From a virus (Duplodnaviria; Caudoviricetes): a DNA stretch of 64,000 nucleotides. Positions 3,996-56,499 of this stretch are shown piece after piece. The stretch lies in IMG/VR virus record IMGVR_UViG_2700988794_000001, positions 1 to 64,000 of that record. One strand, given 5' to 3'. A program made the translations under genes and the position numbers. A model generated the notes under the pieces. The model saw only the letters and a program-made list of their open reading frames with translations, was not told the origin of the DNA and did no database searches. Each line of letters opens with the position of its first letter. Positions within the stretch are counted from its first letter, which is position 1.

Positions 3996-4493
3996 ATGCT
4001 GCGCCACGTGCTAGAGGCCGGAGCCACGCCACCTGAAATTCATCGGTTAGATGGATGCTGCGTCCTCGTTTACGGGGCTAAGCATTACTGCACCTTCGGC
4101 GTCGGACTTAACGCACATTCAGTGGAGTTCCCAGGAGAAGGCATCACCAATTGGGTCCGATCCTTGTCCGGGGCGAGCATAGAACTAAGGTCTATGTACT
4201 TCGTTGACGTGGCATACATGTCAGAGCGCATCCCTTCTCTTATTCAGCAGTTCATGTCAGAAGGTGTGATCGTCCTGGCAGATGCACCGCCGGTACTCTC
4301 GCACCGGGTGAAGCATATGAACTTGAGGACGTTCCTTCAGAACCTGTCCAGACGCCTCGACACGGGGATAAGCGTGGACGCGTCCGGGCAGATGCACTTC
4401 ATTGAGACCTTCCACTCCGGCGTCCGCAAGGAACTACAAGGGGTGAAGTATTCATTCGAAGGCACCATTCGTCGCAAGATCAATCTCGACTAA
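3996..4493 (+). CDS. hypothetical protein (C-terminus RRKINLD)
   Basis: GGAGAACCAC RBS; downstream of promoter. Confidence 0.7.
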   Translation: MLRHVLEAGATPPEIHRLDGCCVLVYGAKHYCTFGVGLNAHSVEFPGEGITNWVRSLSGASIELRSMYFVDVAYMSERIPSLIQQFMSEGVIVLADAPPVLSHRVKHMNLRTFLQNLSRRLDTGISVDASGQMHFIETFHSGVRKELQGVKYSFEGTIRRKINLD

Positions 4494-4504
4494 ATAGGGC
4501 AAGC

Positions 4505-5251
4505 ATGGGAAAGAGTTTCAAGTCGGATCGCCGGTTCGAACGTCGGCGTCACCGCGAGCAGTACGACGTTGTCGTCAAGGGCAAGCATAGCAGGGAGTTC
4601 AACGCTTCCAGCAACCTCGAAGAGTTCCACGCCCAGCAGCGGGAGGCGCAGTTCAACAGACTGGTCGCCCGGCAGAGGCAGGCCCTAAGCGAAGAACGCC
4701 TCCGGCAGCAGAGCGAGTTGCACGCGGCGCGCTTCCAGACGGGTGTTGAGCGCCTCCGCGAGGGGTTGCAGCAGGTGTCTGTGATCGTTGACGAGGTCTT
4801 TATCGACCAGTGGCGAGCTAATCTACAATCCTTCGCGCAGCGTGTGAGATCGCGCGTGCTTACCGAGGGCGCTGCAAACGAAATAGTCTCCCGCGCCTGG
4901 GAGCGGCAGGTTAACTTCAGCAGCATAGAGAGCGTCGATGATCTGGTAGCCACGGACGGGCCGATCCACTGCCTCGTCTATCCGGCGAACATCCTCGGAG
5001 CCGTAGGGCCGGAACAGGCAGAGCAGTTGTCCGCGCTCTACAAAGCAGCCGAGATGGGCGGCATCGTCTTCGTAGACCGGGACCACGACATCGTACTCTC
5101 TTTCGGCGATTATTACGGCAATGGGTACGTAAACTTGCCGACGTTCCTCGCCTTATGCGCGAAGAGAACATCCAGCAGCTTCGTGGTCTCCCGCTCGATG
5201 GCGGCAGCAACCACGCAGGCGATCAAGCGTAAAACACGGCTTGACGACTAA
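4505..5251 (+). CDS. hypothetical protein (C-terminus KRKTRLDD)
   Basis: 248 aa ORF directly following the previous gene. Confidence 0.7.
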   Translation: MGKSFKSDRRFERRRHREQYDVVVKGKHSREFNASSNLEEFHAQQREAQFNRLVARQRQALSEERLRQQSELHAARFQTGVERLREGLQQVSVIVDEVFIDQWRANLQSFAQRVRSRVLTEGAANEIVSRAWERQVNFSSIESVDDLVATDGPIHCLVYPANILGAVGPEQAEQLSALYKAAEMGGIVFVDRDHDIVLSFGDYYGNGYVNLPTFLALCAKRTSSSFVVSRSMAAATTQAIKRKTRLDD

Positions 5252-5458
5252 TGCAACCTGTTGCAACCTAATAGAAAGGGGTGATGCGAAGTATCCAAGC
5301 AGTAATAGGGCCGTGGAACCTACACATGTGAATGCGAAATATAGCATATAAGAACGCATAGATTGTTTTTTGGTTCCACTTTGATTAGATTTTTCTTGCG
5401 AACATACCTCACATTTGGTACTTACGTTCGCAGGGCAGCATTAGGGCTAATCCAAATT

Positions 5459-5932
5459 ATGTATAGCGGCGAAGTTGAGTTGCTTGTTCTCATGTGCAAC
5501 AAGCATCCTGATGTTGTAGTTCCGTGTTACGCCAAAGAAGGCGACAGCGGTCTCGATGTCCAGGCGGACATTCTTGAACCCATCACCCTTAATCCGGGTG
5601 AGCGCGAACTCATTCCTTGCGGCGTCAAGTTTGACATCCCACAGGGTTACGAAATCCAGGTCCGGCCTCGCTCCGGGCTTGCACACAATCACGGTATTTC
5701 TATCGTGAATGCTCCTGGCACCGTCGATATGGGCTATCGCGGTGAGATCAAGGTCAACCTGATCAACCATGGCCAAATGCCTGTGACGATAGCTCCCGCG
5801 CAGAAGATCGCGCAGCTTGTCGTCTCTCCTGTAATCAGGGCCATCCTCAGAAAGACCGACACGCTCTCCGAGACACAGCGAGGAGAAAACGGTTATGGTT
5901 CTACCGGAACCCACCATTCTCCAACTCGCTAA
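5459..5932 (+). CDS. dut: trimeric dUTPase
   Basis: Motifs GLDV, RPRSGLA, GTVDMGYRGEI, RGENGYGSTG; start uncertain. Confidence 0.93.
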   Translation: MYSGEVELLVLMCNKHPDVVVPCYAKEGDSGLDVQADILEPITLNPGERELIPCGVKFDIPQGYEIQVRPRSGLAHNHGISIVNAPGTVDMGYRGEIKVNLINHGQMPVTIAPAQKIAQLVVSPVIRAILRKTDTLSETQRGENGYGSTGTHHSPTR

Positions 5933-5946
5933 CCAGGAAACATAGC

Positions 5947-6210: not shown

Positions 6211-6237
6211 TCTGTCGCAACGGGTTGCACGACCCAC

Positions 6238-6270: not shown

Positions 6271-6289
6271 CGTAACATAGGAGAGGTAA

Positions 6290-6616: not shown

Positions 6617-7264
6617 ATGCCATTTTATCTCATTGACAAGCAGGGTCATTTACTTGGCCAGATGTGCCTAAACTTCACGCACGGTAAACACGTGCGTCTA
6701 CCCGTCCGGACCAGGACGAGGCTTACATCAAGCATGGTTGGCCAGACCATTCCGGTGACGGCCACCATGGACGTAGAAGACTTCGAGCTAAAGTATGCCG
6801 CCGACTGGTACGACATTGATTTCGCCCTGACGAACAAAGACGGCAGCGAAGACCTTCAGCGGTCCTATGTCTGGAAGTTCCCTTCCTTCGTACCCAATCC
6901 CTTTTACATGGATGATCGTGAGAACTTCAGGCCGCGCTACGCGATGCCGGACGTAGTCATCACCACGGATGGCAACGGCTACGAGGTGCGCCTCTGCGAG
7001 ATGCATGAACGGGTAGGCGTCCTCCCCCGGCGTACCTTAACGGCGCAAGAGTGGGTAAATGACGAAGGTATAAAACGGTGGCGAGAATTTGCCTTGGGGC
7101 AGGAGGATCGTGATCAGACAATCAAATGGCTGGAGCAGGAGAGGAGAGAGAAGGCCACTGAGGCTCGAAAGAAACGTGAAGCAGCCGAAAAAGCCCGGCG
7201 GCTCGAAGATATCAAGAAATCCAAGAATGCCTTGCGCGTGGTGCGTAAGGTGTCACTCGACTAG
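6617..7264 (+). CDS. hypothetical protein (C-terminus RKVSLD)
   Basis: ORF with charged coiled-coil C-terminus; start uncertain. Confidence 0.65.
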   Translation: MPFYLIDKQGHLLGQMCLNFTHGKHVRLPVRTRTRLTSSMVGQTIPVTATMDVEDFELKYAADWYDIDFALTNKDGSEDLQRSYVWKFPSFVPNPFYMDDRENFRPRYAMPDVVITTDGNGYEVRLCEMHERVGVLPRRTLTAQEWVNDEGIKRWREFALGQEDRDQTIKWLEQERREKATEARKKREAAEKARRLEDIKKSKNALRVVRKVSLD

Positions 7265-8586: not shown

Positions 8587-9192
8587 ATGATCGAAGTTAG
8601 AACGAGAGCCCGCCCCACAGCGGCCCCAGAGATCGCAGTCCGTACCCGGACCCGCCCAGAGCCCGCCGTCCAGGTGCGCACGCGCCAGCGTGCCGTCCCT
8701 GCCCCGCGAGAGCGCAACGTGGACGTTGAGGCGTTGATCGCCGAAGGCAACGACCAGAAGCATTTCGAGAACGTGCTTCCCGGCATCCGTATCACGTGCG
8801 GCATCTGCTACCAGGAGACCGGCGAACGCGTCTTCCTCGGCAGGATCGTCTACAAGCGGATGGACCAGCCGTGCAAGGTGTTCGTCTACAAGGGCAAGGG
8901 CCACGAGAACGACCCGGCCAGCTACGTGATGGACGCCACCAAGAACTACGATGACGCCGTCGCCGTGCTCCGCAAGCGTCACGAACACCGCAGCGCCGAG
9001 AAGAAGCCCGCCACCCAGAAGGCAAAGGCGAAGACGCCTCCCGCTTGGCGACCGGCACAGACCTATCAAAGGTCCGGAAGAGGGCGCGCTGAGGTGCAAC
9101 AGGTTGCACGGGTTCCGGGTGGACGGGCTAAGCAAGAGGTAGTAGTGGCACAGCCCGGTCAGCTACAGGTGAAAAGAAACGTAAAATTATGA
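8587..9192 (+). CDS. basic hypothetical protein with three VRTRxR repeats
   Basis: GGAGAACCGCC RBS; C-terminus KRNVKL. Confidence 0.7.
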   Translation: MIEVRTRARPTAAPEIAVRTRTRPEPAVQVRTRQRAVPAPRERNVDVEALIAEGNDQKHFENVLPGIRITCGICYQETGERVFLGRIVYKRMDQPCKVFVYKGKGHENDPASYVMDATKNYDDAVAVLRKRHEHRSAEKKPATQKAKAKTPPAWRPAQTYQRSGRGRAEVQQVARVPGGRAKQEVVVAQPGQLQVKRNVKL

Positions 9193-9853: not shown

Positions 9854-10225
9854 ATGACAAAGAGCCATAAGCCTGCAAGGGGCTCGCAACAGGAACGCTT
9901 GCTGATCGGTCTCCTCCACGGGGATATCGTGGACCCGATCAAAGCCATCAATGACTACAACGTGCTGATCCCAGCCGCCCGCGTGGCCGAACTCCGGCGC
10001 ATGGGGTGGCCGATCCGCAGCATCCACATAGCTCATCCGAGTGACAAGTTCATCGGGGAAAGCCTGACCGCGTACACGCTCGATAATCACTTCAGGCGAT
10101 GGTACGGCGACCCGGCCAACCTCGGCAAACACCCTGCCCTCTACCCCGGCAAGGACGGGCGCGGCAAGTTCGAGGACTGGCAGCAAGAAGACTTCGAGCG
10201 CGGGGAGCGAGCGCATGCTGGGTAA
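9854..10225 (+). CDS. winged HTH protein (HTH_39-like)
   Basis: SQQERLL...DPIKAINDYNVLIPAARVAELRRMGWPI pattern. Confidence 0.65.
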   Translation: MTKSHKPARGSQQERLLIGLLHGDIVDPIKAINDYNVLIPAARVAELRRMGWPIRSIHIAHPSDKFIGESLTAYTLDNHFRRWYGDPANLGKHPALYPGKDGRGKFEDWQQEDFERGERAHAG

Positions 10226-10916
10226 CGCCTACATCTTTGTGGTCGGGTGCCTCGCAGCGCTTGGTTGCTGGTATATTTCTGTGCGTATCGCCGAGAGCAT
10301 CACCAGCGACACGCCCAAGAAGGAAGAGCCGTTGCCCGCGCCCATACCTGGAGGCTTCCGCATGTCGGACGCCCTCATAGCGGAGGAGCAGCGGATAGAG
10401 GACGAGGAGGAAGCTGCCTACGAAGAAGCGCTAGAACGCGCGGAAGCGGATGCGACCAGGGGTATCGAAAAGAACCTTCTCGTAATCTACTCCGATAAGC
10501 GCCCGCCGGAGCCCCCGCCCTGGACCATTTGCCAGTCGGAGGGAACTCTATGGGTTGTCATGGCCGAGGGCACCATGCGGGCAGACGTGTGGCAGCTAAC
10601 CATGGACGGTAAGTGGTCGAAGATCAGTGACGAACGTTTCGGCACCGTGAAGCACGTGCTGATGCAGCGAGCCAACACGATCCTCGGCCTTACCGCCGTG
10701 ACCGACAAGAACATCCCGAAGTTCACCAAGGTCGTGGAGATGCTCTCCAAGAACGGCAACATAGCGAAGAGCCAGTTGCCGGATAAGTGGATCAAGTGGA
10801 TGGATAAGCTCGACGCCGAGACGAGTGAGGCCCTCTGCGAACTCCTGTCCATCACCGACGACATTCGCGCAAAGCCGACAAAAGAGGGTCGCCGTCTAAT
10901 CGACCTAAGCGATTAG
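10215..10916 (+). CDS. membrane-anchored hypothetical protein (C-terminus RRLIDLSD)
   Basis: N-terminal hydrophobic helix. Confidence 0.65.
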   Translation: MLGNAYIFVVGCLAALGCWYISVRIAESITSDTPKKEEPLPAPIPGGFRMSDALIAEEQRIEDEEEAAYEEALERAEADATRGIEKNLLVIYSDKRPPEPPPWTICQSEGTLWVVMAEGTMRADVWQLTMDGKWSKISDERFGTVKHVLMQRANTILGLTAVTDKNIPKFTKVVEMLSKNGNIAKSQLPDKWIKWMDKLDAETSEALCELLSITDDIRAKPTKEGRRLIDLSD

Positions 10917-10973: not shown

Positions 10974-12563
10974 TTGGCCTACTTAATCCTTCCCATGCAA
11001 GAAGCCTGTGCCGTGGATTTCACGAAGTGGTCCAGGCCTCCGGTGAGCTTACGGATAAGCGTTCCGCTCAAGGAAATCCGTCACGTCGATTTGCGGGAGC
11101 GCGGGTACGACAACCCCTTCCGCGTCCACGATGAATTCACGCAGATTTGCCCGGTCGCCGACCTGACCAGGATAGACCGTGACGCTCTCCAGGAAAAGTT
11201 GCCCTTCCAGTATCGCGTCGATAGTGACGGCGTCATCTGGTATCAGCCGGGCTCGACGGTGCAGACGCACTACTCCCTGACCCATGAGAAAGAGTTGGAC
11301 GCGCTCAACGTCCCTGATTATTTTTCCTGCCGCGATTGGTTCCCGCAGGACGACTACTACGCGAAGCGCGGCGCATTGCTTGAGCGTGGCCAATATGGCT
11401 CTAGACATATAAGCGTCTTCAACCATAGGGGCGAGCAGACAGGGAGCACGCCGACTTGCCGGTTGATCATTCCCGATGACTTCGAAACGAAGTTCGACAT
11501 TGGCGAGGATGGCTTCTACTACTCCAAGCTATGGGGCTTCGACGTGTCCTATACGAAGGGGAGCAGTATCTCGAAGCTTCAGTCCTTCCTCGACGGCGAG
11601 ATGGGCACGATCAAGGACACCTACGTGGCTCAGGCATTCAAGAGAATGCCGTCTGCGTACATCCGTGGAGACTACGCCAAGAACATCCTCAATCACGGCA
11701 AGAAGTTTGAAAAGGCGTTCCGCGTAGCCGAAGAGCCGGTCAAGCGGAAAGACGTGCAGAAGGCCGTCCGTAACGGCGGCGCGCGCTTCGTCAACCTCGG
11801 AGAAGACAGGGACAACATCGGGTGCTTCCCGGCAAACGCGTTCGTCAATACCCGTGCAACAGGTTGCACCGAGAACCTCGGTTTCCTGCACCTCGGTTTT
11901 AGGACCAACGGCGATAACGTCCTCTTGACGCCGCCGCACGACACGAACCCTTTCCTGACGCCCGCCGGAACCATGCTCGTGCACAAGACAGCGGACGCGT
12001 GGCGCTTCGTCTTCATGTCGCTGATGATGGTCACCAATCACATGCTCGACGCTGACCGTCTGCGATCCTTCCCGGCGCTCTACATGATACCGCAGTACGT
12101 CCACCGCAATGAAGTGACCTTCTCCACCAAGGCGTTTCGCGGCGTCGGCCTGGAGATACAGGAAGCGATATGGGCTACCGAAGGGATGAGCATGGCGATC
12201 AGCCGGGCCATGATGGGGCTCAAGTACGAGATGTCACGCAAGCCGAAAGACTTCGCCCTGAACACTGACCAGATCGCGAAGCTGCCTGAGAACCACAAGA
12301 TAGGTATGATCGGGGTAGGCTATGCGGGCTACATGAAGACCGGCGACACCCTACGGGATTACGCTGGCATGCTGGGTACGGATGGACAGGTTCACCACGA
12401 CGGCCTCTATAACTTGCAGCTAACCAGCCGCCATACGCTCAAGTTTAATCGTGCCGTGGACCTCCTGGATATGATCTTCTGGGACTTGCCACCCAACAGT
12501 TTGGTGCAGGCCAAGCGTAAGGTCGAAACTAAATTCGTCTCGACCCGGAATGTTCGCATCTAG
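10974..12563 (+). CDS. hypothetical protein, 529 aa (C-terminus TRNVRI)
   Basis: GGAGAACCAC RBS before TTG start. Confidence 0.7.
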   Translation: MAYLILPMQEACAVDFTKWSRPPVSLRISVPLKEIRHVDLRERGYDNPFRVHDEFTQICPVADLTRIDRDALQEKLPFQYRVDSDGVIWYQPGSTVQTHYSLTHEKELDALNVPDYFSCRDWFPQDDYYAKRGALLERGQYGSRHISVFNHRGEQTGSTPTCRLIIPDDFETKFDIGEDGFYYSKLWGFDVSYTKGSSISKLQSFLDGEMGTIKDTYVAQAFKRMPSAYIRGDYAKNILNHGKKFEKAFRVAEEPVKRKDVQKAVRNGGARFVNLGEDRDNIGCFPANAFVNTRATGCTENLGFLHLGFRTNGDNVLLTPPHDTNPFLTPAGTMLVHKTADAWRFVFMSLMMVTNHMLDADRLRSFPALYMIPQYVHRNEVTFSTKAFRGVGLEIQEAIWATEGMSMAISRAMMGLKYEMSRKPKDFALNTDQIAKLPENHKIGMIGVGYAGYMKTGDTLRDYAGMLGTDGQVHHDGLYNLQLTSRHTLKFNRAVDLLDMIFWDLPPNSLVQAKRKVETKFVSTRNVRI

Positions 12564-12627: not shown

Positions 12628-14388
12628 ATGGCAGAGCAAATCAGAACAGCGCCTACAGTAAAGCCCGGTGTCACTCGCGCCGTGCGCCTTGACGATGGGC
12701 AGGAAGACGCCCAGCGCGTCATCAAGGGCGAGTTGAACTCGAAACAGGTCGAAGACCCGTTCAAGAAGTTCTACACCGACAACATGTCGGACCTCGCCAT
12801 TGCTGAGCCGCCCTACAGCTTCCTCGCCCTTCTGCGCATGACGCAGGAGAACGCCATGCTCCGGCAGTGCCTGGAAGCGATGGTGACCAACGTCGAAGGT
12901 CACGGCTATCGCATGGCCTACATCGGGCCGGAGAAGAAGGGCGAGACGGGCGGCGAGGATAGCCCGGCTGCTGCCGCAGAGCTTGAGACGCTCGAAGCAT
13001 TCTTCGACGCACCGAACGACAGCTACTCCCTGGTCGAACTCCGCACCCGCGCTCGCTGGGATTTGGAGAGCCTCGGCAACGCCTACATCGAAGTCGGTCG
13101 TAACCAGAAGGGCGAAGTCACGTCCCTGTGGCATATCCCGGCGCACCTGATGCGCATCACCAACACCGACAACGACGCCACCCCGGTGAAGGCGAAGCTC
13201 GCCCGCAAGTCTGGCGTGGTCGAGCAGACGGTCAACAAATACTTCCGCCGCTTCGTCCAGATCGTCGGCACCAAGAAGGTTTACTTCAAGGAGTTCGGCG
13301 ACCCGCGCAAGATCGACCCGGCCAACGGTCAGGTGAACGACACCCTCGTCCACGAAGACACGGCGACCGAAATCATCCACCTCCGGCTCTACAATCCGGG
13401 CTCGATCTATGGCCTTCCGCGTTGGCTCACCCAGGCACCGTCCATCAAGGGCTCGCGCCAAGCCGAACTGACCAACCTGGAATACTTCACGGACAACGCC
13501 GTCCCGGCCATGGTCATCATGGTCTCCGGCGGGCACGTGGATCAGGCCAGCCTCGATAGCCTCGAAGAGCATATGCAGGGCGTGCGCGGGCGTAAGGCGC
13601 AGCACCGCATTGTCATGATCGAAGCCCGTGGCGATGAGCATGCCGCCGCCGAGAACGGCACCATCGCGCCGCCCAAGCTAGAGATCAAGTCCCTCCAGGG
13701 CGACCGTCAGGGTGACGCGCTCTTCCAGGAGTACGAGAAGGACTGCCACGCCAAGGTCCGGTCGGCTTTCCGCTTGCCGCCGATCTTCGTTGGCCTCTCC
13801 GAAGACTACAACTACGCCACGGCCAAGACCGCGTTCGAAGTTGCCGAGAGCCAAGTGTTCGGGCCGGAGCGCGCAATCATGGATGACATGATCAACCGCA
13901 AAGTCCTCGCCACCTGGGAAGTGAAGAACTGGCAGTTCCGTTCGAACCCGCCGCGCATCTCCGATCCGGAAGAAGTGATCAAGGCAATCGAGACCTTCAA
14001 TCAGGTTGGCGCGATGACACCGAACGTTGCTGTCGGCCTCGCCAACGAAATGTTCGATCTGGATATTCCGACGATTGACGATGATTGGGGCAACTGGCCA
14101 TTCGAAATGGTCAAGGCCCTCGGCGCTGCCGGACGCATCAAGGGCATGAAGGATTTCCTCGAAGAAGTCGATACCCAGGTTGATCCTCTGACAGGTCAGC
14201 CGAAGAAGGCCCCTGCCTCCGCCCCGGCTGGCGAGAAGTCCAAGGCCAAGGAGAAGGCAGAACGCGCCGTCCGCTCGGCACTCCTCGATTTGCGCAACGC
14301 CATCGCTCACCCGGAAGAGCCTGCAACGCAGGAGATCGTCCGCGACGACGGCACCACACTTGAGGTGCGCACGCGTGTTAGGGGTTGA
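12628..14388 (+). CDS. portal protein (PBSX family-like)
   Basis: GNAYIEV, EIIHLR...IYGLP, YFTDNAVP, AFRLPP motifs; first gene of head module. Confidence 0.88.
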   Translation: MAEQIRTAPTVKPGVTRAVRLDDGQEDAQRVIKGELNSKQVEDPFKKFYTDNMSDLAIAEPPYSFLALLRMTQENAMLRQCLEAMVTNVEGHGYRMAYIGPEKKGETGGEDSPAAAAELETLEAFFDAPNDSYSLVELRTRARWDLESLGNAYIEVGRNQKGEVTSLWHIPAHLMRITNTDNDATPVKAKLARKSGVVEQTVNKYFRRFVQIVGTKKVYFKEFGDPRKIDPANGQVNDTLVHEDTATEIIHLRLYNPGSIYGLPRWLTQAPSIKGSRQAELTNLEYFTDNAVPAMVIMVSGGHVDQASLDSLEEHMQGVRGRKAQHRIVMIEARGDEHAAAENGTIAPPKLEIKSLQGDRQGDALFQEYEKDCHAKVRSAFRLPPIFVGLSEDYNYATAKTAFEVAESQVFGPERAIMDDMINRKVLATWEVKNWQFRSNPPRISDPEEVIKAIETFNQVGAMTPNVAVGLANEMFDLDIPTIDDDWGNWPFEMVKALGAAGRIKGMKDFLEEVDTQVDPLTGQPKKAPASAPAGEKSKAKEKAERAVRSALLDLRNAIAHPEEPATQEIVRDDGTTLEVRTRVRG

Positions 14389-26000: not shown

Positions 26001-27949
26001 CTCCGACAAGCAGGAGCGCTTGAACAAGCTGATCGAGTTCGAAGCCGCCGCCCGTGACGCCGGTCTCACGAGCATCGATAAGTGGCGGTCGCAGTACGTC
26101 GCCGCACTCGATGAAGTGAAGAAGGCCCAGGAAGCCGCCAACAAAAACTTCGCGCTCGGCTTCGGTGAAGGCCTTCGCGATTTCGGACTTGACGCAACCA
26201 ACCTTCGTGCGCAGGCCAAGGACTTGGCGTCTGGCATCGCTGGCGATATCTCCTCTACCCTGAGGCCGGGCTGAAGACTGGCAAGTTCGACATCAAAGAC
26301 CTCTTCTCTAATATCGCTGGCCGCTTCGTGGACATCGGCGTTGACAACCTTGTCGGCTCCATCTCGAAGCAGCTTGGCGGTATGTTCAATGACGGAACCG
26401 ATAATGACCCTGTCGCCAAGGCTAAGGCCGTGATCGCTGCCCAGCAGGACGCCTACACGATGACTGTGCAGGGTGTGCAGGGTGCAGGTGCCACCTTCGT
26501 GCAACAGTTGCAGATGAGCTTTGACGGCATCGTCCAGGGCATCGGAACCATCAACGGTTCGAACGGTAGCAGCATGGCCGCTGGCCGCGCCTCTGATCGT
26601 GCGAGCATGCCGGGCTACTCGGCTGACTACGCCAGCAAGGTCAAAGACCTGAAGACTGATATCATCTCCGAAGTGCTGAAGGCGAACACCTCCGCCAGCG
26701 GCGTCGGCAGCTTCAAGACCACTGGCAACTTCAACGCCATGGGTGCGCAGAACGTCGATCAGCGTCTCGTCCAAATCCTGGAAGAAGCCTCGAAGCGCTC
26801 CGGCATGAACGTCGAAGCCTACTCCGGCTACCGCCCCGGCGATCCTCGCCAGCACGGCCAGGGCTCGGCTATCGATGTCGGCATCCTTGGCGCTGATGGC
26901 AAGCGCCTGCCGAACTACCAGAACGGCCAATACTTCCGCCAGTACGAGCAGCTTGCTCAGACCGCGAAGCAGGTGCAGATGGAACGCTTCCCCGAGATGA
27001 ACGATCAGTTCCGCTGGGGTGGCTACTTCGGCGGTCCGAAGGGCAAGTACGGCGCGATGGACGCCATGCACTTCGACACGGGCGGCAAGAACATGGCGGG
27101 CGGCTCTTGGGCCAACGGCCTGAACCAGAACCAGCGCCAGATGTTCCCCGACGCCACGTCTGTCGGAATGAACGTGCAACAGTTGCAACAGCAGTTGTCC
27201 CAGGTCGGAACCGCTGCACAGACAGCCGCGTCCGCAACGCAGGCCGTCAACACGGCGTACCAGCAGACCGGCACCAATACGCAGACGGCAGCACAGGCCG
27301 TGCAGCAGCTTGCCACGAATAGCCAGCAGGCTGCTACGACCATGCAGACGGCAGGGCAGACCATGGGTCAGGCAGGGCAAGCAGCCGCCGCAGCGGGCAC
27401 ACAGGCGGCGACGGCGACCGCAGGCGTGGGTGAGTTCGGCAAGGGCATCACCGGCCTCCTGTCGCCTCTCCTGAGTGTCATCCCAGGCATCGGTCAGTTC
27501 GGTCAGGCTATCGTCGGATTGCTCGGCAATCTGCTCAAGTCTCCTACGGGTGGCGCTGGCGGCGGGCTGCTTAGCTTCCTGTTCGCCAACGGCGGTATCA
27601 TGACCAACACTGGCAAGATGCCTCTGAAGACCTACGCCAAGGGCGGCATAGCTAAGAAGCCGCAGGTTGCCGTCTTCGGAGAAGGCCGCATGAACGAAGC
27701 CTACGTCCCGCTGCCAGACGGCAAGTCGATCCCCGTCTCCATGTCGGGTGGCTCCGGCGGTGGCGGCGTGTCGATGGGCGATATCAAGATCGATATCAAA
27801 ATGTCGGCTCCTCCGGCGATGCAGAGAAGGATCAGAAGCACGCCGAGAACACGGCTGCGACGATCAACAAGATGCTTGACCAGAAAATCTCTTCTTGGGC
27901 GCTGCGTGAAAGCCGTCCTGGTGGAATGTTGCAGAAGGCGATGAAGTAA
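23046..27949 (+). CDS. tape measure protein with peptidase M15-like domain (three indels)
   Basis: Tape-measure motif QLSQAFASGTLRGEELNSVLEQSP; FANGGI...GEG..EAYVPL C-terminus. Confidence 0.85.
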
Positions 27950-42385: not shown

Positions 42386-43024
42386 ATGCTCATTTCCGCA
42401 ATCACTGGCGACCAGAACTTCCCGAACGGCAGCGCGAAGCTGCATCTCTTTTTCGTCCCGACGCGGCAGCGCATGGGGCAGGAGGTTCATATTGGTCAGC
42501 TTGCCCGAGGCGTCAACCCAGACGTTCCCTGCTCTGCCACCAACATCCGCCGCTTCAATGCGATGAATGGCGCTCCCGAAACCCTTGGGAAGTGGACGCA
42601 GGCCAACTACGATGTCCCAGAGGGTGTCGTGCTCAAGCTCTTCGGCACCCGGCGCACCTCCATCCAGGGGCAGAACATCGGGTCCGCCTCCGCAGTCATC
42701 TATGTCCAGGCGCGCTCGAATGCGGCGCTGACAAGCATCGACTTCAGCCTTATCCCTAACGACCGTTCGCCGATCACGCGGGCAGAGTTGCAGGGTAGGT
42801 TCGACATTCTCACAGGTGCGGAACTCGCACAGCTTGGCGTCTCCATGAACCAACAGACGCTGATGTCCATGAGCGAGCGCAACGTGAGCCGGGTATTCGC
42901 GTTGAGAACCCTTGAACGGCAGCTTCAGGCAAAGCAGACCGTCCGGACCACCACCGTGAATAATTCTGATGGCGAAGCTGTCGTCATTCAGAAGCAGGTA
43001 GCAAGGCGTGCCGTCAAGCTCTGA
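42386..43024 (+). CDS. hypothetical protein (C-terminus RRAVKL)
   Basis: CGGAGAACCAC RBS. Confidence 0.7.
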   Translation: MLISAITGDQNFPNGSAKLHLFFVPTRQRMGQEVHIGQLARGVNPDVPCSATNIRRFNAMNGAPETLGKWTQANYDVPEGVVLKLFGTRRTSIQGQNIGSASAVIYVQARSNAALTSIDFSLIPNDRSPITRAELQGRFDILTGAELAQLGVSMNQQTLMSMSERNVSRVFALRTLERQLQAKQTVRTTTVNNSDGEAVVIQKQVARRAVKL

Positions 43025-43102: not shown

Positions 43103-43546
43103 ATGTCTCATACCACCACACTGAAGGGCGTCCAGATCAAGGACATCGCCGCGCTTCGCGCAGCGGTCGCTGAACTCATCACCCAGGGCGTCAACTGCGC
43201 TCTCCTGGAGAACGCCAAGCCGCGCATGTTCTACGCGAGCCAGCACACCAACTGCGATTACGTCCTGAACCTGAAGGACAGCCAGTACGACGTTGGCTTC
43301 GACAAGCAGAAGGACGGCTCCTACGCTCCGGTGTTTGACGAATGGTCCAACCACGTCTCGGCGAAGATCGGCGCTTCCTGCCCGCTGCCGACCACGGCGG
43401 AAGGCAAAGCCCAGCACCAGATCGGCAAGCTGCTTCAGTCCTACCAGAAGCACGTCGCCATCAACGCCGCCGTCATGTCCGGCTACTCTGTCGAGAGCGC
43501 CGACTACGACAAGGAAGGCAACCTCCAACTCGTGATCAACGCGTAA
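43103..43546 (+). CDS. DUF1257 (Ycf35-like) protein
   Basis: MSHTTTLK..IKD..AL..A, YDVGF...DGSY..V.DEW, L.Q.Y. Confidence 0.75.
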   Translation: MSHTTTLKGVQIKDIAALRAAVAELITQGVNCALLENAKPRMFYASQHTNCDYVLNLKDSQYDVGFDKQKDGSYAPVFDEWSNHVSAKIGASCPLPTTAEGKAQHQIGKLLQSYQKHVAINAAVMSGYSVESADYDKEGNLQLVINA

Positions 43547-43600: not shown

Positions 43601-43819
43601 ATGAGCATGAAGCAGATCAAGGTCACCATCGATCCCATCGGCAACTCCAAGGTCGAAGCAATCGGCTACAACGGCGTCGGCTGCGAAGCCGCCACGAAGA
43701 CGGTCGAAGACGCGTTGGCCGGTGGCAAGGGCGGTGTTGACCGCGTCATGAAGCCGGAATGGTCGAACCCGAACACCGAAGAGCAGACCCAGCAGCAGGG
43801 CATCCCGACCTGGGGCTAA
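43601..43819 (+). CDS. DUF2997 protein
   Basis: IKVTIDP.G...VEA.GY.G.GC..AT...E.AL, KPEW. Confidence 0.8.
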   Translation: MSMKQIKVTIDPIGNSKVEAIGYNGVGCEAATKTVEDALAGGKGGVDRVMKPEWSNPNTEEQTQQQGIPTWG

Positions 43820-47797: not shown

Positions 47798-50624
47798 TGC
47801 CAGCTATGCGACCACGCCATGTGCAGCTTGAAGAAAAACGACCGGTGCAACAAGTTGCAGGCGCTACCCACATGCGTCGGGCGGAGGAAGGCGGTCGCCA
47901 CACCTTCAGCTTCGGACCCTACGACCACCCGGTAACCGATGAGAAGTGCGGCGACATCCTGGTTGTATGCGATGCGCAGAATTGGGATGCTCAGCGTTGG
48001 GGCTACCCGATGCATCCCGATAGCATGAGGATGTTCGCCAAAGCCGCAGAGAAGGCTGGAGTTCCTGACGGCAAGATCACCTTCCTCGGCCTCTGCCCGC
48101 CCGTGCCGACCCAGGACATCAAGTCCGCCGCCCGCACCTGGAAGCACGTCGAGAAGTTCGTGCCCGGCGTCATCGAGTACATCAATCAGCAGAAGCCGAA
48201 GGTCGTCGTCACCCTTGGCGCGCTCGCCAGCCGTGCCGTCTTCGACCGTTCCGTGTCGATCACCAAGGCCCGTGGCGTCCTCGTGCAGCCGCACCCCCAC
48301 CGCCCTCACGTCTTCCCGATGCTGTCGCCCGGCTTCATTGCCCGCGTCCCGGAACACCAGAAGACTTTCGAAGGCGACATTGGCACGCTCTCGAAGTTCG
48401 TACATGCCGGGTTCGATCCGAATGGCATCATGACGATGGAGACCGACTACCAGTGGTGCTACGATCTCCAGTTCATGATCGACAACCCGCCACAGGCCCT
48501 TGCCGTTGACACAGAAGGCACAGGGCTGCGTTGGCACCAGGACAGCACTCGGAACCTCACCGTACAGCTATCCCCTCGCCCAGGCGTCTCCTATATCATC
48601 CCCGTGGACGAAGCCTATGTGATGAAGTGGGCGAAGTTCTTCCCACCTCGGCTTGCCGGTCGCTTGGCCGGTTGCGCGAGCAGTTGAAGCAAATTCTGGA
48701 AAACCCCGACATCCAGAAGATGGGCCACAACATCAAGTTCGACCATATGATGATCCGCAAGATGGGCATCAATATGCAGAACGTCAAACACGATACGCAA
48801 ATGATGGCGTTCGGTGTTGACGAGAACATGATGTCCAAGACCCTGGACGATTGCGTCCGCGTCTGGGTTCCGCAGATGTCCGGCTATGCCGACGACTTCA
48901 ACACGCACGTTGACAAGAACAGGATGTTCGACGTGCCACCCGAAGACATCCTGGACGAAAACGGCAAGGTCATCCAGTACGGCATGCGCCGATACGCAGG
49001 CGGCGATACCGATGCCACCTTCCGGCTTGCCCGCGCCCTCTATCCGTTGCTTCGGCGCGAGCCCAGCCAGTGGAACATCTACGAGCGCATCCATATGCCC
49101 GCCCTGATGGCCTTCGCTAATCGCCTGGAGCGGTATGGCATGGTTATCGACCAGGAAGCGCTACGCAAGCTCTCTGGCGACGTGAAGGCATGGCTGAAGG
49201 ACGAGTTCCGGGCGCTGATCCGTATGGTGCCTCCTGCCGTCCGCCGCAAGCATCTCGAAGCCGGTCTCAAGTTCTCCCGTGACCAGTTCGTCCGTGATAT
49301 CCTCTTCAGCGAAGACGGCTTCAACCTCAAGCCCCAGGTCTTCACCAAGTCCACCGAAGACCTTTCGGATGAGACCAAGCGCGTGCCGTCCGTCTCGACC
49401 AAGGATCACATGCCCTACTTCGTGACCCGCAAGGACACGGCAGGGCAGTTCGTCACCCGTCTGATCGAGTACCAAAAGACCTCGAAGATGGATAGCACGT
49501 ATTGTGGCAACGAAGAGGAAAGGACCGGGTTCTGGCAATACCTGAATAGCAGCAGCCGCATCTTCCCATCCTTCGCGCTGCACAAGACCAACACAGGCCG
49601 CACCGCATCTAGCGATCCGAACGGCCAGAACTATCCGAAGCGTGGTCAGTGGGCCAAACCGTTCCTGAAGGTCTTCAAGCCCAACCCAGGCTACCGCTTC
49701 GTCGCCGCCGACTTGTCGCAGATCGAACTGCGCATCGCTGCCTGGGAAAGCGGCGATGAAACAATGCTTGACATTTATCGCAATGACGGCGATATTCACA
49801 TGATGACAGCGGCAGCAACTATGCGCCTCTCTGTCGAAGAATTCCTACAACAAGAACCTGCCATCCGTAAGTTTAAACGCTTCGCCGCTAAAGCTGTGAA
49901 TTTCGGCTTCGTTTACGGAATGGGTGCAAAAGGCTTCCGGACCTACGCTAAGACGCAGTACGGCGTGGATTACTCCGAGCGTGAAGCCTACGAGACCCGC
50001 GAACTGTTCTTTGCCACCTACCGGCAACTCATCGCATGGCACGAACGTCGCAAGACCGAAGCACGTCGCCAGGGCTTTGTGTCCTCGCTGCACGGCGCTA
50101 TCCGTCACCTGCCGTCGATCTACTCCAGCGACCAGGGCGTGGCGGCTATGGCAGAACGGCAGGCCGTCAACGCGCCTGTCCAGCGCTTCGGCTCCGACCT
50201 CGGCGTCATGGCCCTAACCCGTCTCTCATGGCAGGCAGACCCGGAAATCATGCGCCCGGTCGGCTTCGTCCATGACCAAGTCATCTGTGAGGCCAAGATC
50301 GGCCACGAACTGGAAGCGGCCAACGCCCTGGTATGGGCTATGGAAAACCCGCTGCTCGAAGAGTGGTTTGGCATCACCGCGCCGCTGCCGATCAAGGCCG
50401 AGCCGGATATCGGCGACACCCTCGGCACCACCCTCGAACTGAACGAAATGCCGAAGAACGAAGACGGCTCTCTGAAGGTTCCCGACTGGTGGAGCGAGAC
50501 TGGCATCGAGTGCGTCAACGTCAACGGCACATGGAAGGCCCCGTTCGCCCCGGCCAAGCCCACATGGTGGAACGACAATGAGGCAGAAGCGCAGGAGCAG
50601 TTCACCCGCTTCCTCCACGTTTAA
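47797..50624 (+). CDS. family A DNA polymerase with N-terminal UDG-like domain (indel near 48660)
   Basis: AVDTEGTGL, GHNIKFD, TGRTAS.DPNGQN, ADLSQIELR, AKAVNFGFVYG, FVHDQ. Confidence 0.9.
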
Positions 50625-50734: not shown

Positions 50735-51148
50735 ATGCCCCGTACAGCCCGCGCCGTCAACCTCAGCACCGAACTGACGGCTGACGAAAAAGAACAACAG
50801 ATGAAGGCCAAGCTGGCGAAAATCCGCCAGTACGCCAAGGCCGAGAGCAAGGCCCGCTCCGACAAGGACAAGCTCTTGCGTCAGCTTGAAAAAGAGATGA
50901 CGGCGGCTGGAAAGCGCAAGCTCGAAGTCTTTTACGACAACGAGACCATCATCGGCGAGATCGGCACTGGCGACCCGCGCAACGTCGTGGACACTGCCCT
51001 GCTCGCTTCCAAGATCACACATGCTCAGTTCGTGTCCATCGCCACCGTCGCTGGCGGCGCGGTCAAGGAAGCCTTCGGCACCGGCATCCTCAATCAGGTG
51101 CTTGTCGAAAAGGAAGGCGAGCGCAAGCTTCGCGTCGAGGTCGCGTAA
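50735..51148 (+). CDS. hypothetical protein
   Basis: GAGGAG RBS; begins MPRTARAVNL. Confidence 0.7.
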   Translation: MPRTARAVNLSTELTADEKEQQMKAKLAKIRQYAKAESKARSDKDKLLRQLEKEMTAAGKRKLEVFYDNETIIGEIGTGDPRNVVDTALLASKITHAQFVSIATVAGGAVKEAFGTGILNQVLVEKEGERKLRVEVA

Positions 51149-53067: not shown

Positions 53068-54116
53068 ATGACTGACACACCTGAAGTCCGCACGCGTTCT
53101 CGCACAGCGGCACCATCCACGGAAAGCAATCAGGGCGAAGCAACGGGCGGCATGCGCCGTACCCGCGTTGCCATGGCTACCGGCTCGGCAGGATCGACCG
53201 GCGGCGAAGACACTTCGTGGATGCATACTGGCGACGAAGGCGCGGCCCAGGCCGACAAGGTTCGTCAGGAGCGTGCATCGCAGGACGCGGAAGCTGCCAA
53301 GCGCCCGTCAAGCCCATGCGCTTCAAGCTGGCGTGGAACTTCCAGGATAGCGGCTTCGGCGAAACTGCCGACGTGGTCATCCTCGACGCGAAGCCCGGCC
53401 CGCGCTTCTGGGAGCATACCGCTCGCAACCCGCGTACCGGCTACTGGACGGAATTCGAGCAGTGCCCCCATGAATGGGACAATTGCCCGCTTTGCCCTCC
53501 GGATGGCGAGAAGTCTCCCTACTATGTCATGATGCTTACCGTCATCGACATGCGCGAATTCACTGACCGCGAAGGCAAGGTATGGGCAGCGACCCGTAAA
53601 CTGCTTCCGGTCAAGATCGAGCAGCAGGGCTTCTTCGACGGGCTCTATAAGCAGCATGGATCGCTTCGCGGCATCCGTCTGATCATGACCCGCGATGGTG
53701 GCAAGATGTCGTCGCCGATTGGCAACAACATCCAGTTCGACTGCATCCACACTGAAGAGGAAATGACCGAATACTGCACGTCCTCCGGCCTCTGGGAAGA
53801 GTACAAGCAGGACAACGGTCGCGTCATCTGGGGTGAAGGCGAATTCATCCAGGCCTACAATTACGGCAAGATTTTCGAACGCCCTTCCGGTGCCAAGCTG
53901 CGCCTGAAGTACAACCCCAGCGGCCAGGGCGACACCATCGGTGGTCGCGACCAGCAGCAGGGCGAAGGCTGGCGTTCGGGAACCAATCCGGGCCGGGCAA
54001 CCGGCATGGCACAGCGTAGCTCGCAGCGCCGCGTCAATCTTGACGACACCAAGGGAACCGGCGGCTCGGCTGGCGGACCCAACAGTAACGAAATGGATGA
54101 CAACATTCCGTTTTGA
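53068..54116 (+). CDS. single-stranded DNA-binding protein (indel near 53305)
   Basis: CPLC zinc site; Gly-rich tail ending MDDNIPF. Confidence 0.7.
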
Positions 54117-54150
54117 TGAGTAACCGGCTTCTCCCGGTGCAACAGGTTGC

Positions 54151-55619
54151 ATGCGCATGAATGACATGGTCACAAACGTAGGGAATTCTACGCCGCTAGT
54201 GGGCTCACTCGGCGGCTGGCTCTACGTGCCTTACGATGTCATCGGCGACTATGCCGCCCTGCATCGGGAGAAGACGGCCTTAACCTATCTCCCGAAATTC
54301 GCAGAGACAGACAATGACACAGTTCGCCTATATGAAGATGTCCCTCGCCGCAGGGTTCTCGGCGTTCCGCGCGCTTACGGCCTGGAGCGCTTTGGTCATC
54401 TGCTCAACCCGCGAGACCTCCGTACCTTTGGCGAGCGTATGGGTCCGATCCCGCGTCTTCCAAGTCCAGATCATCCAAGCGTAAAAGACCCGCATGCGCA
54501 GGCCAAGTTTATGGCCGACCTCGAAGCCGCCGCCCGCCAGCACTTTCACTTTCTGGCAGAGGCACCGACCGGCTCCGGCAAGACCGTGTGCGCTATCCGC
54601 ACCGCTGCCGTGATCGGGCGCAAGACCGTGGTTAACGTCCACCTGGAGCGTCTTCTAGGCCAGTGGATGGACGAGATACACAACAAGACCGGCCTCCCCT
54701 ACGACCGCATCGGAATGGTGCAGGGCGACAAGTGGGATTGGCGTGATAAAGATTTCGTAGTGGCGATGATGCCCACGTTGGCCTCGCAGAATGGTCGCAT
54801 CGATCCGGCCTTCTTCCAGTCCTTCGGCACGGCTATCTATGACGAAGTGCACAGGGTCGGCGCTCCCATGCTTGGGCAGACGGCGCACCTCTACCCGGCT
54901 CACTATCGTTGGGGCTTCTCCGCCACGCTATACCGCAAGGACGGCGGCGAACGGACCTTCTACTGGCACATTGGGCCGGTGCGCGTGACCTCCCAGGCCG
55001 CTGCCCTGCCGATGACGGTCTACGTCAAGAAGTACACCGCATACGGAAAGCTATGGGGCAAGAACCACGGAAGCCGGATGCAGTGCCTGTCGCAGGATTG
55101 GTCCCGGAACCAATTGCTGGTGGTCTTCATCCGCCGCTTGCATCGCGCCGGGCGTCAGACGCTGATCGTCGGCGACAGTGTTCAACATCTACAGCACCTG
55201 ATGGACCTTTGCGCCCAGGCAGGTGTTTCCCGTGAAGACATGGGACAGTTTACGAGCGAGCGGCACATACTTCAGGAGTACGTGAACGAAAAAGGGGAAA
55301 AGAAGACACGGGTTCGGAAAATCAAGATCAAGCCGGAAGAACTGGATGCCGTTAAAGAGAACGCGCAACTGATCTTTGCCACGTATGGATGATGACGGAA
55401 GGTATCGACATACCCCGTCTCGACGCTGGCATCGACGTGCTACCACGAGGAGACGCAACACAACTTATTGGCCGCATTCGTCGGCCACGCCCTGGAAAGC
55501 CAGAACCTGTCTGGATCACCCTACTCGATACCAAATGCTTTATGAGCAAGAAGTATTTTGAGCGCAGGTGCAAGGACTATCAGGCTACCGGTGCGATAAT
55601 CAGAGAAGGTGCAATATAA
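54151..55619 (+). CDS. SF2 helicase (UvsW-like; indel near 55388)
   Basis: APTGSGKT, DEVH, SAT, EGIDIP.LD, Q.IGRI.R. Confidence 0.88.
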
Positions 55620-56095
55620 TGACCGCCGCCGCAGCAACTGACAAGACTTATAAGGATCGCAATGCGCGCCGCCGTGCTCGCTATGCGGAAGACCCTGCCT
55701 ATCGCCAGAGCATCATCGAACGTGAGCGCTCGAAGCGCACCACGGTCGTGACTGACTGCCGGGAGAATTTGGCCCACCTCGAAACGTTTGGCCACGTCCG
55801 CGAATACCACAAGCCGAATGGCGTGGTTGACACGGGCCTGACCTTCACCATCGAAGAAGCCGCCTCCGCCATGGGCCGGACACCGAAGAGCCTCTACAAA
55901 TATTATAGCAAGGACATGTTCCCTCGCCCGGTCTATACCGTGAAGGGTCCGACTGGCCTTGTGCAGGAGGCTTACACCGAAACGCAGATGCGCGCCCTGA
56001 TCAACGTCTTCGGCGCTCACCTCGCAGAAACGCCATACTACGGCGTCTACCACAAGCAGACCAGAGCAGCCCTCTTCGGCTGTATCGGTCAGTAA
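55619..56095 (+). CDS. HTH DNA-binding protein (MerR/excisionase-like)
   Basis: FTIEEAASAMGRTPKSLYKY...FPRP...YT..Q. Confidence 0.6.
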   Translation: MTAAAATDKTYKDRNARRRARYAEDPAYRQSIIERERSKRTTVVTDCRENLAHLETFGHVREYHKPNGVVDTGLTFTIEEAASAMGRTPKSLYKYYSKDMFPRPVYTVKGPTGLVQEAYTETQMRALINVFGAHLAETPYYGVYHKQTRAALFGCIGQ

Positions 56096-56106
56096 CAGGA
56101 GCAGTC

Positions 56107-56499
56107 ATGTCCACGGGAGATTTGACGGTGCGCACTCGTAACAGGGTGCCACCGCCGGAACCACAAGCCGCCCCTCGGAGGGCTGTCAACCTCCACGTCG
56201 AACCGGAATTGGTCATCCACGAAGGTTCGGTCCAGGTCAGTCGCGTCATGTACGGCGTCGAGACCGAGAGCGTCAACGAGAAGGTCGCCGTGCCGATCTT
56301 TCACACCGCTCCGGCTCGCGTCCGCATCAGCGGCGGCATCACCAAGAACCTCGGCGACTATAATAGCGCCCGGTTTGATGTCTCGATGGAGCTTCCCTGC
56401 TATCCGGAAGACAGCGAGATCGACAGAACGAAGAGCTACATATCGGCCAAGGTCGAGCAGTATCTTCTGGAAGAAATGGAACAAGCCGGAGTGCCATAA
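56107..56499 (+). CDS. conserved phage hypothetical protein
   Basis: TKNLGDYNSARFDV; AGGAG RBS. Confidence 0.65.
   Translation: MSTGDLTVRTRNRVPPPEPQAAPRRAVNLHVEPELVIHEGSVQVSRVMYGVETESVNEKVAVPIFHTAPARVRISGGITKNLGDYNSARFDVSMELPCYPEDSEIDRTKSYISAKVEQYLLEEMEQAGVP

Follow-up and report, generated by a model that had tools for sequence, protein, structure and literature searches.

Unrelated proteins of a relative of Rhizobium phage RHph_I4 share a terminal Arg-x-Val/Ile-x-Leu/Ile peptide, with a Ycf46-type AAA+ ATPase as candidate partner

The DNA analysed here (the window) comprises the first 64 kb of a 109,558-bp virus record, IMG/VR IMGVR_UViG_2700988794_000001, with a GC content of about 0.59 and almost all genes on the plus strand. 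Many unrelated proteins of this phage carry, at or near one end, a short peptide of the form R-x-[VI]-x-[LI], hereafter called the tag. The sole close relative among the collected phages is Rhizobium phage RHph_I4 (MN988552.1, 108 kb), with about 80% DNA identity over the structural region of the window. The gene order is in agreement with the RHph_I4 annotation, namely terminases, a block of small genes, portal, head, tail and lysis genes and a cassette around an AAA ATPase. The cassette is followed by replication and recombination genes, ribonucleotide reductase (RNR) and about 45 kb of small ORFans.

A terminal peptide shared by unrelated proteins

Open reading frames (ORFs) were called with a simple caller of our own, which gave 180 ORFs in the whole genome and 77 in the window. 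The pattern R.[VI].[LI], taken over from the initial annotation, was counted at the extreme C- and N-termini of their products. In the window, six C-terminal matches were found vs 0.45 expected from the interior density (P=7.7e-6), and the N-terminal zone showed no enrichment (2 vs 1.13 expected). Over the whole genome, the same comparison with interior density gave 7 vs 0.98 expected for the C-terminal zone (P=7e-5) and 12 vs 2.45 for the N-terminal zone (P=1e-5). Whole-protein shuffles (n=300) contained 31.8 +/- 5.7 matches vs the 59 observed in total. The terminal enrichment over shuffled sequences, on which the initial annotation depended, was found at both ends when residues were shuffled locally. 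Eight C-terminal matches were observed vs 1.32 after shuffling the last nine residues of each protein, and 13 N-terminal matches vs 2.04 after shuffling residues 2-15, and neither count was reached in any of 1000 shuffles. Because the local shuffles never match the observed counts, the excess is set by residue order, and terminal composition is ruled out as its cause. In an unsupervised gapped-triplet scan with a reduced alphabet, basic-x-aliphatic-x-aliphatic took first place in RHph_I4 and second place in the studied genome.

Tagged genes number 27 of the 180 in the genome, and roughly one in eight proteins of the studied phage and its relatives bears a terminal tag. Beyond the first 64 kb, the peptide stands directly after the start codon of many small proteins, such as MRYVRLDDD, MKRHVRLDD, MRKVRLEE, VRSIRLDD and MARNIRID. 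A few matches reflect structure and are false positives: one is a HAD-type motif in the deoxyribonucleotidase of RHph_I4, another the N-terminus of tail assembly protein I, shared with the tag-negative phage Y1_11. The top terminal-enriched triplet of the studied genome is a different one, [KR]-G-Y, with 10 terminal occurrences (0.5 expected) and 3 interior ones. It is not in the top list of RHph_I4 and could partly stem from frameshifted ends.

The assembly is frameshifted relative to RHph_I4 in at least 12 large genes (tape measure, polymerase, RecA, SSB, RNR and others). Because essential genes are broken so often, these frameshifts are probably indel errors of the assembly and not biology. 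The frame changes relative to intact RHph_I4 genes (Table 1) affect ThyX, head morphogenesis, scaffold, tail tube, tape measure (3), endolysin, polymerase, SSB, helicase, RecA and RNR (3). Some called termini are therefore artefactual, and the termini were checked against the deposited RHph_I4 coding sequences (CDS). The tagged termini match the CDS starts and ends of that GenBank entry.

Sixty-two terminal instances from four genomes give the logo [KR]-R-[AHKNR]-[VI]-[RDKQN]-[LI]. The Arg is fixed in 62/62; the following aliphatic positions are occupied by Val or Ile in 39 and 23 instances and by Leu or Ile in 49 and 13, and a basic residue stands at position -1 in 28 of the 62. After the Leu/Ile comes the chain end (18), Asp or Glu (24) or Gly (7), and a carboxylate, from the free terminus or from an acidic side chain, follows in 42/62. 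Since R, V/I and L alternate, they would lie on one face of an extended strand. Over 23 terminal instances, the Arg is encoded by CGC, CGT, CGG, AGA or AGG, the Val/Ile by GTG, GTA, GTT, GTC or ATC, and the Leu/Ile by CTC, CTG, CTT, CTA, TTA or ATC. Selection thus acts on the protein, since codons vary at all three fixed positions, and the protein-level signal claimed in the initial annotation was borne out by these counts. A DNA or RNA element at gene borders is ruled out by this codon variety and by the persistence of the tag at GC 0.50.

A search with Pfam and PHROG found no family shared among the seven C-tagged window proteins, none of which has one, and within-genome blastp revealed no paralogous pair among the RxVxL-tagged proteins. 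The only tagged protein with a paralogue is 8587 (proteins without a name are called by their gene start), whose partner, 107309, is untagged. Hidden paralogy of the carriers is ruled out by these searches. The flanks of the tag are modestly richer in disorder-promoting residues (0.59 vs 0.50 proteome-wide), a figure that is a composition proxy only.

The PP1 RVxF docking motif, which has an aromatic last residue and a PPP phosphatase as receptor, is similar to [KR]-R-[AHKNR]-[VI]-[RKQN] save for that last residue, and the studied genome and RHph_I4 both encode a PPP-family Ser/Thr phosphatase. The tag might on this ground serve to dock a modifying enzyme such as the phosphatase. However, its last position is Leu or Ile in 62/62 and never aromatic. 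The phage phosphatase was rejected as the receptor, since a homologue was not found in G006 (complete, 10 tags), G001 or G002. We consider docking of such an enzyme highly improbable.

The comparison set consists of a small number of phylogenetically related genomes. Between the studied phage and RHph_I4, tagged ORFans are 38-68% identical and core proteins 80-93%. Eighteen of the 23 tags with an RHph_I4 orthologue are kept under strict alignment, and three of the five scored as lost are gene-call or alignment artefacts. The R/V/L positions are identical in 56/69 cases and the flanks in 185/327. The predefined pattern replicates in six relatives with GC 0.50-0.62, strongly in RHph_I4, the IMG/VR phages G001, G003 and G006 and Rhizobium bangladeshense 'plasmid p7' (NZ_CP071625.1), and weakly in G002. 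C-terminal matches number 9 in G003 (0.61 expected, P=2e-8), 5 in G001 (0.49, P=1.6e-4), 10 in the complete genome G006 with GC 0.50 (0.47, P=9e-11) and 10 in p7 (0.63, P=1.4e-9), and G002 has two C-terminal tags and two in N-terminal leaders. In the controls, run through the same caller, no proteome-wide tag was found, with C-terminal counts of 0 in Y1_11, which has the same host species, 0 in G005, 0 in SM1 and 1 in RcDurkin.

Among the genomes compared, N-terminal use of the tag is restricted to the studied phage and RHph_I4, and the portal is tagged in these two only. In SSB, the tag is near the C-terminal end in the studied phage, is N-terminal in RcDurkin (RKIAL) and is lacking in G001 and G002. 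The tag is gained, lost or moved among orthologues, yet conserved where present.

Our own gene caller, the frameshift-ridden assembly and the enrichment of basic residues that is common at protein ends across all phages compared could together suggest that the tag is functionless and merely arises from composition, gene calling, hidden paralogy or a DNA repeat at gene borders. Nonetheless, composition is excluded by the local shuffles and a DNA repeat by the codons, the RHph_I4 CDS ends agree, neither shared families nor BLAST paralogy were found, and the tag replicates in the relatives and is absent from the four controls. We give this explanation next to no weight.

The properties of short linear motifs are present: few fixed positions, unrelated carriers, a terminal or disordered location and evolutionary plasticity. 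The tag is very probably a selected, portable docking or targeting motif, for which binding is predicted. The initial proposal is thus upheld in part: the peptide behaves as a short linear docking or targeting motif, as it is portable, sits on unrelated carriers, is conserved, replicates in relatives and is absent in controls, and a single hub would be a prediction. The N-terminal half of the tag set (outside the window), the second Arg-x-Arg-x-Arg motif described below and the spread over a clade of phages of about 80-110 kb go beyond what was initially proposed.

Two observations concern the genomes compared. The p7 sequence (109,431 bp, circular, non-mobilizable, close to the IMG/VR record G003) encodes capsid, tape measure and tail proteins, the AAA cassette and replication genes in the order seen in the studied phage, and is either a phage-plasmid or a phage genome assembled together with its host. 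Many RcDurkin proteins resemble one another at their ends in a different manner, with N-termini such as MAFKKRIT, MAFVKRST, MAFVKRSS and MAIKPPVRK, C-termini such as ...RRKLK-stop, ...KRIGKK-stop, ...STRRKK-stop and ...RRIRKAA-stop, and an AAA tail ...KPGKK-stop. This resemblance may be a lineage-specific counterpart of the tag.

Tag carriers, a second arginine motif and a promoter-like sequence

All 14 peptides quoted in the initial annotation were found in plus-strand frames at the genes named, which were right, although the positions given were gene starts and not tag sites. Seven of them directly precede a stop codon, and the weak KRAGMSLDS likewise ends the AAA ATPase. Tags were also said to lie in the ends of core proteins; this applies to the portal, DNA polymerase, 50735, 56107 and SSB, and not to the small terminase, in which the tag is internal. 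The tag sites are listed in Table 1.

Table 1. Positions of tags, cassette genes and further features (window coordinates unless marked; -stop, peptide followed by the stop codon)
Feature	Position	Strand	Remarks
RNVQLTD, internal (residue 133)	467..487	+	Small terminase (TerS); RHph_I4 has RNVQLSD; flank rich in disorder-promoting residues (0.71, composition)
RRKINLD-stop, C-terminal	4470..4490	+	ORFan 3996..4493; kept in RHph_I4 orthologue; no Pfam/PHROG family
KRKTRLDD-stop, C-terminal variant	5225..5248	+	ORFan 4505..5251; Thr for Val/Ile, strict pattern unmatched
VRKVSLD-stop, C-terminal	7241..7261	+	ORFan 6617..7264; RHph_I4 orthologue (52% identical) has RKVHLE-stop
KRNVKL-stop, C-terminal	9172..9189	+	Protein 8587..9192; two N-terminal RTRxR motifs; RHph_I4 counterpart 30960..31463 has C-terminus KRNVKL-stop
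RRLIDLSD-stop, C-terminal	10890..10913	+	ORFan 10215..10916; orthologue 38% identical, C-terminus RRRVDLDD-stop
TRNVRI-stop, C-terminal	12543..12560	+	529-aa protein 10974..12563, directly upstream of portal gene; G001 and G002 orthologues (21-24% identical) end RRVQLDM-stop, RMVELD-stop
RAVRLDD, N-terminal (residue 17)	12676..12696	+	Portal 12628..14388; portal C-terminus VRTRVRG-stop
KRAGMSLDS-stop, degenerate, C-terminal	42144..42170	+	AAA ATPase 40500..42173
RRAVKL-stop, C-terminal	43004..43021	+	212-aa protein 42386..43024, adjoins AAA ATPase gene
RHVQLEE, N-terminal (residue 7)	47815..47835	+	DNA polymerase I; start 47797 backed by RHph_I4 annotation and tblastn
RAVNLS, N-terminal (residue 6)	50750..50767	+	Protein 50735..51148; G002 orthologue (27% identical) has RAVELD at residue 32
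RRVNLDD, in disordered tail	54027..54047	+	SSB, 22 residues before stop; acidic end ...DDNIPF
RRAVNL, in N-terminal leader (residue 24)	56176..56193	+	Protein 56107..56499; VRTRNR precedes; G002 orthologue has VRNRAP-RAVDLD at residues 7-18
Ycf46-type AAA+ ATPase, candidate receptor	40500..42173	+	557 aa; PF00004 at residues 299-425, E=1.7e-29; phrog_8638 full length
DUF1257 (Ycf35-like)	43103..43546	+	Pfam above cut-off
DUF2997	43601..43819	+	Pfam above cut-off
V-R-[TS]-R-x-R sites	8177-8215, 8587-8660, 14365-14385, 18750-18771, 42102-42116, 56125-56145, 56510-56530; genome 107309..107842		
Promoter-like sequence	8533, 10920, 40419, 42328, 43034, 50652, 59719	+	Variant before 3996
Insert of 8.5 kb	3996-12563		Between large terminase and portal
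Frame changes vs intact RHph_I4 genes	7938-7950, 14785-15015, 16210-16225, 21812-21815, 23747, 26268-26271, 27734-27806, 38873-38879, 48639-48666, 53292-53316, 55389, 57484, 62331-63252		

The tags are terminal and portable, and the portal and the protein encoded directly upstream of it are both tagged, which would fit a signal carrying cargo proteins into the procapsid. Scaffold homologues are detectable by BLAST in tag-positive genomes only, a weak point that may simply reflect divergence. However, about 25 carriers including the polymerase, SSB and the 557-aa ATPase are implausible as cargo, many carriers lie in an ORFan-rich region with sigma-70-like promoters, and C-terminal tags that stop exactly at Leu cannot be protease-removable leaders. 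A role in capsid loading is very unlikely.

The functions of the tagged core proteins are compatible with recruitment to a different hub, such as a replication or packaging scaffold, the host sliding clamp, the nucleoid or a polar matrix, of which the AAA ATPase would be merely one client. The polymerase, SSB, two small proteins of the replication module, the small terminase, the portal and the ATPase are all tagged, and the SSB tag is at the opposite end in RcDurkin, as expected if tethering alone matters. Motifs that bind the beta-clamp occur likewise at N-termini, C-termini and in loops, as described in PMC11139829. The clamp-binding motif itself was rejected for the tag, because Arg is invariant at position 1 (62/62) and the hydrophobic residues are at 3 and 5, not at 2/4/5. 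Moreover, no candidate scaffold separates tag-positive from tag-negative genomes beyond their general divergence. Recruitment to such a hub is possible, with the odds clearly against it.

The terminal 30 residues are also enriched in a second motif, V-R-[TS]-R-x-R, after which Pro often follows. For R.R.R in this zone, 21 matches were observed vs 6.6 expected in the studied genome, 17 vs 4.4 in RHph_I4, 12 vs 1.7 in G003 and 12 vs 2.2 in G002; in the controls the counts were 1 vs 0.2 (Y1_11) and 1 vs 4.6 (RcDurkin). The R.R.R match in 26328..27944 is probably a frameshift artefact. V-R-[TS]-R-x-R is found at the N-terminus of RecA, the C-terminus of the portal, in the AAA tail, twice in protein 8587 and in several other tag carriers, sometimes 8-15 residues ahead of the tag, and it may be the second half of a bipartite signal. 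At a replication or packaging hub it could add nucleic-acid affinity.

A promoter-like sequence, TTGACAAAGGATCGGTTCC.AAGTTAGATT, is conserved, with sigma-70-like -35 and -10 elements and a conserved spacer that may be an operator. The window contains seven matches vs 0.6 expected. There are 23 genome-wide, about 55-130 nt upstream of gene starts, and the 16 further ones lie between genome positions 65991 and 108449. The form TTGACAAAGGATCGGTTCC..GTTA is present upstream of the AAA gene, its neighbour and several tagged genes.

The 8.5-kb insert between the large terminase and the portal is an unusual site for genes of nucleotide metabolism. It contains dUTPase, glutaredoxin and ThyX (names from the RHph_I4 annotation), six tagged ORFans and at least three copies of the promoter-like sequence.

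The Ycf46-type AAA+ ATPase cassette and the candidate receptors

The core of the ATPase is closest to the D2 domain of Cdc48/VAT/p97 (E=1e-78), with only the single AAA core aligning, and also resembles PAN and FtsH. Membership in these families was rejected, as the scores were 127 bits vs a cut-off of 803 for CDC48, 105 vs 500 for PAN and 94 vs 600 for FtsH. The N-domain superposes on Ycf46 N-domains with TM 0.79-0.82 (clusters labelled PF30482). The protein has the marks of the Ycf46 family, namely one AAA domain, a Ycf46-type N-domain and adjoining DUF1257 and DUF2997 genes. PADLOC and NCBIfam gave generic AAA-core matches only. The N-domain possesses a conserved acidic stretch, ELEDDVxILDFD in the consensus of alignment A1, which could receive a basic strand.

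Four genes follow the ATPase, encoding the 212-aa protein, DUF1257, DUF2997 and a protein of about 120 aa. The cassette order is identical in RHph_I4, G001, G002, p7, RcDurkin and SM1, and G006 has the AAA gene and, assigned by position, its tagged neighbour. The full cassette is present in 4/4 complete tag-positive genomes (the studied phage, RHph_I4, G006 and p7) and in the near-complete G001 and G002. Y1_11 and G005, which have no terminal tags at all, possess an AAA-core homologue only. Sequence searches of PDB with DUF1257, DUF2997, the 212-aa neighbour and the 122-aa protein found nothing below E=0.002, and the Atlas model of the 212-aa neighbour (pLDDT 0.35) is uninformative. When IMG/VR was searched for loci with the AAA alignment, the Walker-A pattern dominated the matches, and of 41 loci only 2 belong to the family.

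Both the ATPase and its neighbour bear the tag over some distance. RRAVKL-stop is almost invariant in 11 homologues of the neighbour down to 34% identity, and the positional counterparts end in RRAIDLGD-stop (G002), RAINLD-stop (G006) and RRGRKITI-stop (RcDurkin); this counterpart is tagged even in RcDurkin, where the proteome-wide tag is absent. The C-tail of the ATPase contains VRARSR (around nt 42102-42116) and then KRAGMSLDS-stop. Among 37 AAA homologues (51-89% identical), a loose terminal tag was found in 28, a strict one in 11 and RxRxR in the tail of 27. Their tails follow the form [VP]-R-x-R-x-R and, 8-15 residues on, G-x-R-x-[VMT]-x-L-D-G-stop, and R537, R539 and R550 stand out from the variable remainder of the tail by a conservation of at least 90%.

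Several side observations concern the module. Ycf46-type AAA, DUF1257 and DUF2997 are conserved together in Rhizobium, Rhodobacter and Pseudomonas phages, and full-length AAA relatives were found on plasmids of cyanobacteria and actinobacteria. Some of the AAA homologues measure 830-1000 aa and contain intein/Hint or LAGLIDADG domains, and the ATPase gene is therefore an intein target in relatives. The module also occurs in cyanobacteria and red-lineage plastids, and we know of no mechanism for it. PMC4284462 describes DUF2997-ycf35 as a conserved gene cluster in cyanobacteria. In the literature searched on the DUF pair and Ycf46/Ycf35, no function was found for Ycf46/DUF1257/DUF2997.

We propose that the portable motif consists of [KR]-R-x-[VI]-x-[LI] plus Asp/Glu or the chain end, often with a V-R-[TS]-R-x-R element. 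The R, V/I and L would dock by strand addition into a groove of one common receptor, and a carboxylate, either the free C-terminus or an Asp/Glu side chain, would close the contact. The candidate receptor is the phage Ycf46-type AAA+ module, with its N-domain, Cdc48/VAT-like core and the DUF1257, DUF2997 and 212-aa partners. The ATPase would engage client proteins via their terminal tags in order to unfold, remodel or recruit them, with the tagged tail of the ATPase itself as a competing or self-docking ligand. We rank the module first among the possible hubs, with a probability of roughly 35%, because the tag is conserved on its tail and on its neighbour, the core is unfoldase-like and AAA N-domains offer a precedent. 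Among the hubs listed in the initial annotation, the AAA ATPase thus gains circumstantial support, its own tail and its neighbour bearing the most conserved copies of the tag, and the sliding clamp falls by the Arg and the register of the motif.

A number of observations weigh against the module as receptor. Its own tag fits equally well with the ATPase being a client of another receptor, and it is not obvious that an unfoldase would act on the portal, small terminase, polymerase and SSB. The co-occurrence of tag and cassette is based on few, related genomes. Among 119 distant full-length AAA relatives (34-55% identical), only 3 have a strict tag and 16 a loose one. G002 has the cassette (61% identical) yet few tags, and RcDurkin and SM1 have it (AAA about 32% identical) without the proteome-wide tag; the cassette is hence at most necessary and not sufficient. 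Co-regulation was rejected as evidence for the link, since 4 of the 22 promoter-proximal genes are tagged vs the 27/180 genome-wide, which is no preference. Presence and absence over 10 genomes singled out no receptor, and many lineage-specific proteins fit. Basic tails do not discriminate the cassette phages either: the proportion of proteins with at least three K/R among their last eight residues is 12-27% for cassette phages, compared with 14% for Y1_11 and 6% for G005.

A host AAA+ protease such as ClpXP could instead read the tag as a degron or adaptor-like signal, which would time the removal of early phage proteins or titrate the protease. The majority of carriers are small ORFans, and sigma-70-like promoters are scattered over the genome. 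ClpX reads short signals at either terminus, and the C-terminal MuA signal RRKKAI, basic and then aliphatic, is similar to RRKINLD-stop, RRAVKL-stop and KRNVKL-stop, according to PMC8138137. The resemblance to MuA-type signals is confined to the C-terminal tags; the N-terminal and internal ones do not fit, and the N-terminal form M-R-x-V-R-L-D-D is unlike the N-terminal ClpX signals tabulated in PMC8138137. Furthermore, a host receptor alone does not explain the restriction to one clade, since Y1_11 infects the same host species and lacks tags, and conservation on the phage AAA tail and its neighbour points to a phage-internal circuit. A search for the SspB family gave no usable host sequence. 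We regard a host-protease signal as unlikely.

Returning to the Ycf46-type module as receptor, its fullest form would be a protein-handling system of the clade's own. A Cdc48-like Ycf46 machine with Ycf35/DUF1257 and DUF2997 would read a bipartite terminal code, V-R-T-R-x-R and then R-x-V-x-L with an acid or the chain end, on more than 10% of the phage proteome. It would unfold, recycle or deliver tagged proteins, for example to clear early takeover proteins or to build replication and packaging factories. We put this forward tentatively.

One peptide connects about 25 functionally uncharacterised proteins with the polymerase, SSB, the portal and the AAA ATPase. Phage ORFans are usually handled singly, and a 7-residue peptide provides one handle to fish for their common partner. 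Should the Ycf46-type ATPase prove to be that partner, one could test directly what a module kept from phages to cyanobacteria and plastids does, and the tag would be the first recognition code, with a client list, for Ycf46/Ycf35/DUF2997. If it is a host hub, the tag would mark the host-takeover set and might be of use in alpha-proteobacteria as a portable label for targeting or degradation. Since the pattern is simple, other phage clades could be screened for terminal motifs that likewise span the proteome.

Comparison with known systems

N-domains of classic-clade AAA proteins bind short linear docking motifs, such as the cofactor motifs of p97/Cdc48 and the MIT-MIM pair of Vps4. Like these motifs, the phage tag is short and occurs on many unrelated proteins, in their disordered termini, and the phage ATPase has a separate N-domain and a Cdc48-like core; its C-tail here bears the conserved peptide. 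The phage case differs from p97/Cdc48 and Vps4 in being from a bacteriophage, in the sequence of the motif, in the Ycf46-type N-domain, for which no ligand is known to us, and in that binding is predicted only.

Peptides that target proteins to capsids or compartments include the T4 capsid targeting sequence, the cargo-loading peptides of encapsulins and the signals of nucleus import in jumbo phages. The notion of an address label at the level of the phage proteome is common to these peptides and the tag. However, the sequences are unrelated, and the tag carriers include replication enzymes and the ATPase itself. To our knowledge, siphophages of the studied kind have no compartment.

The beta-clamp-binding motif is Q-aliphatic-x-[LM]-[FL], or the same with one more x, according to PMC11139829. 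Similar to the tag, it is used at N-termini, C-termini and loops, and a C-terminal carboxylate or Asp aids its binding (PMC11139829). The phage tag, in contrast, has an invariant Arg in place of the Gln, with hydrophobic residues at 3 and 5.

As described in PMC8138137, the ClpX signal of MuA shares with the tag a terminal position and a basic stretch followed by aliphatic residues, and through it phage and transposon proteins engage an AAA+ unfoldase. The phage tag differs from ClpX signals in its fixed R-x-[VI]-x-[LI] register with an acid, in its N-terminal use and in its occurrence in one phage clade rather than one host.

In agreement with the claim of the initial annotation that the system is undescribed, such a tag is not described in the literature searched, mainly abstracts, on the phage by name, the DUF pair, Ycf46/Ycf35 and phage short linear motifs. 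Docking motifs and degrons are familiar in kind; what would be new, as far as known, is a terminal code that about an eighth of the proteins of a phage share and that is tied to a Ycf46 module.

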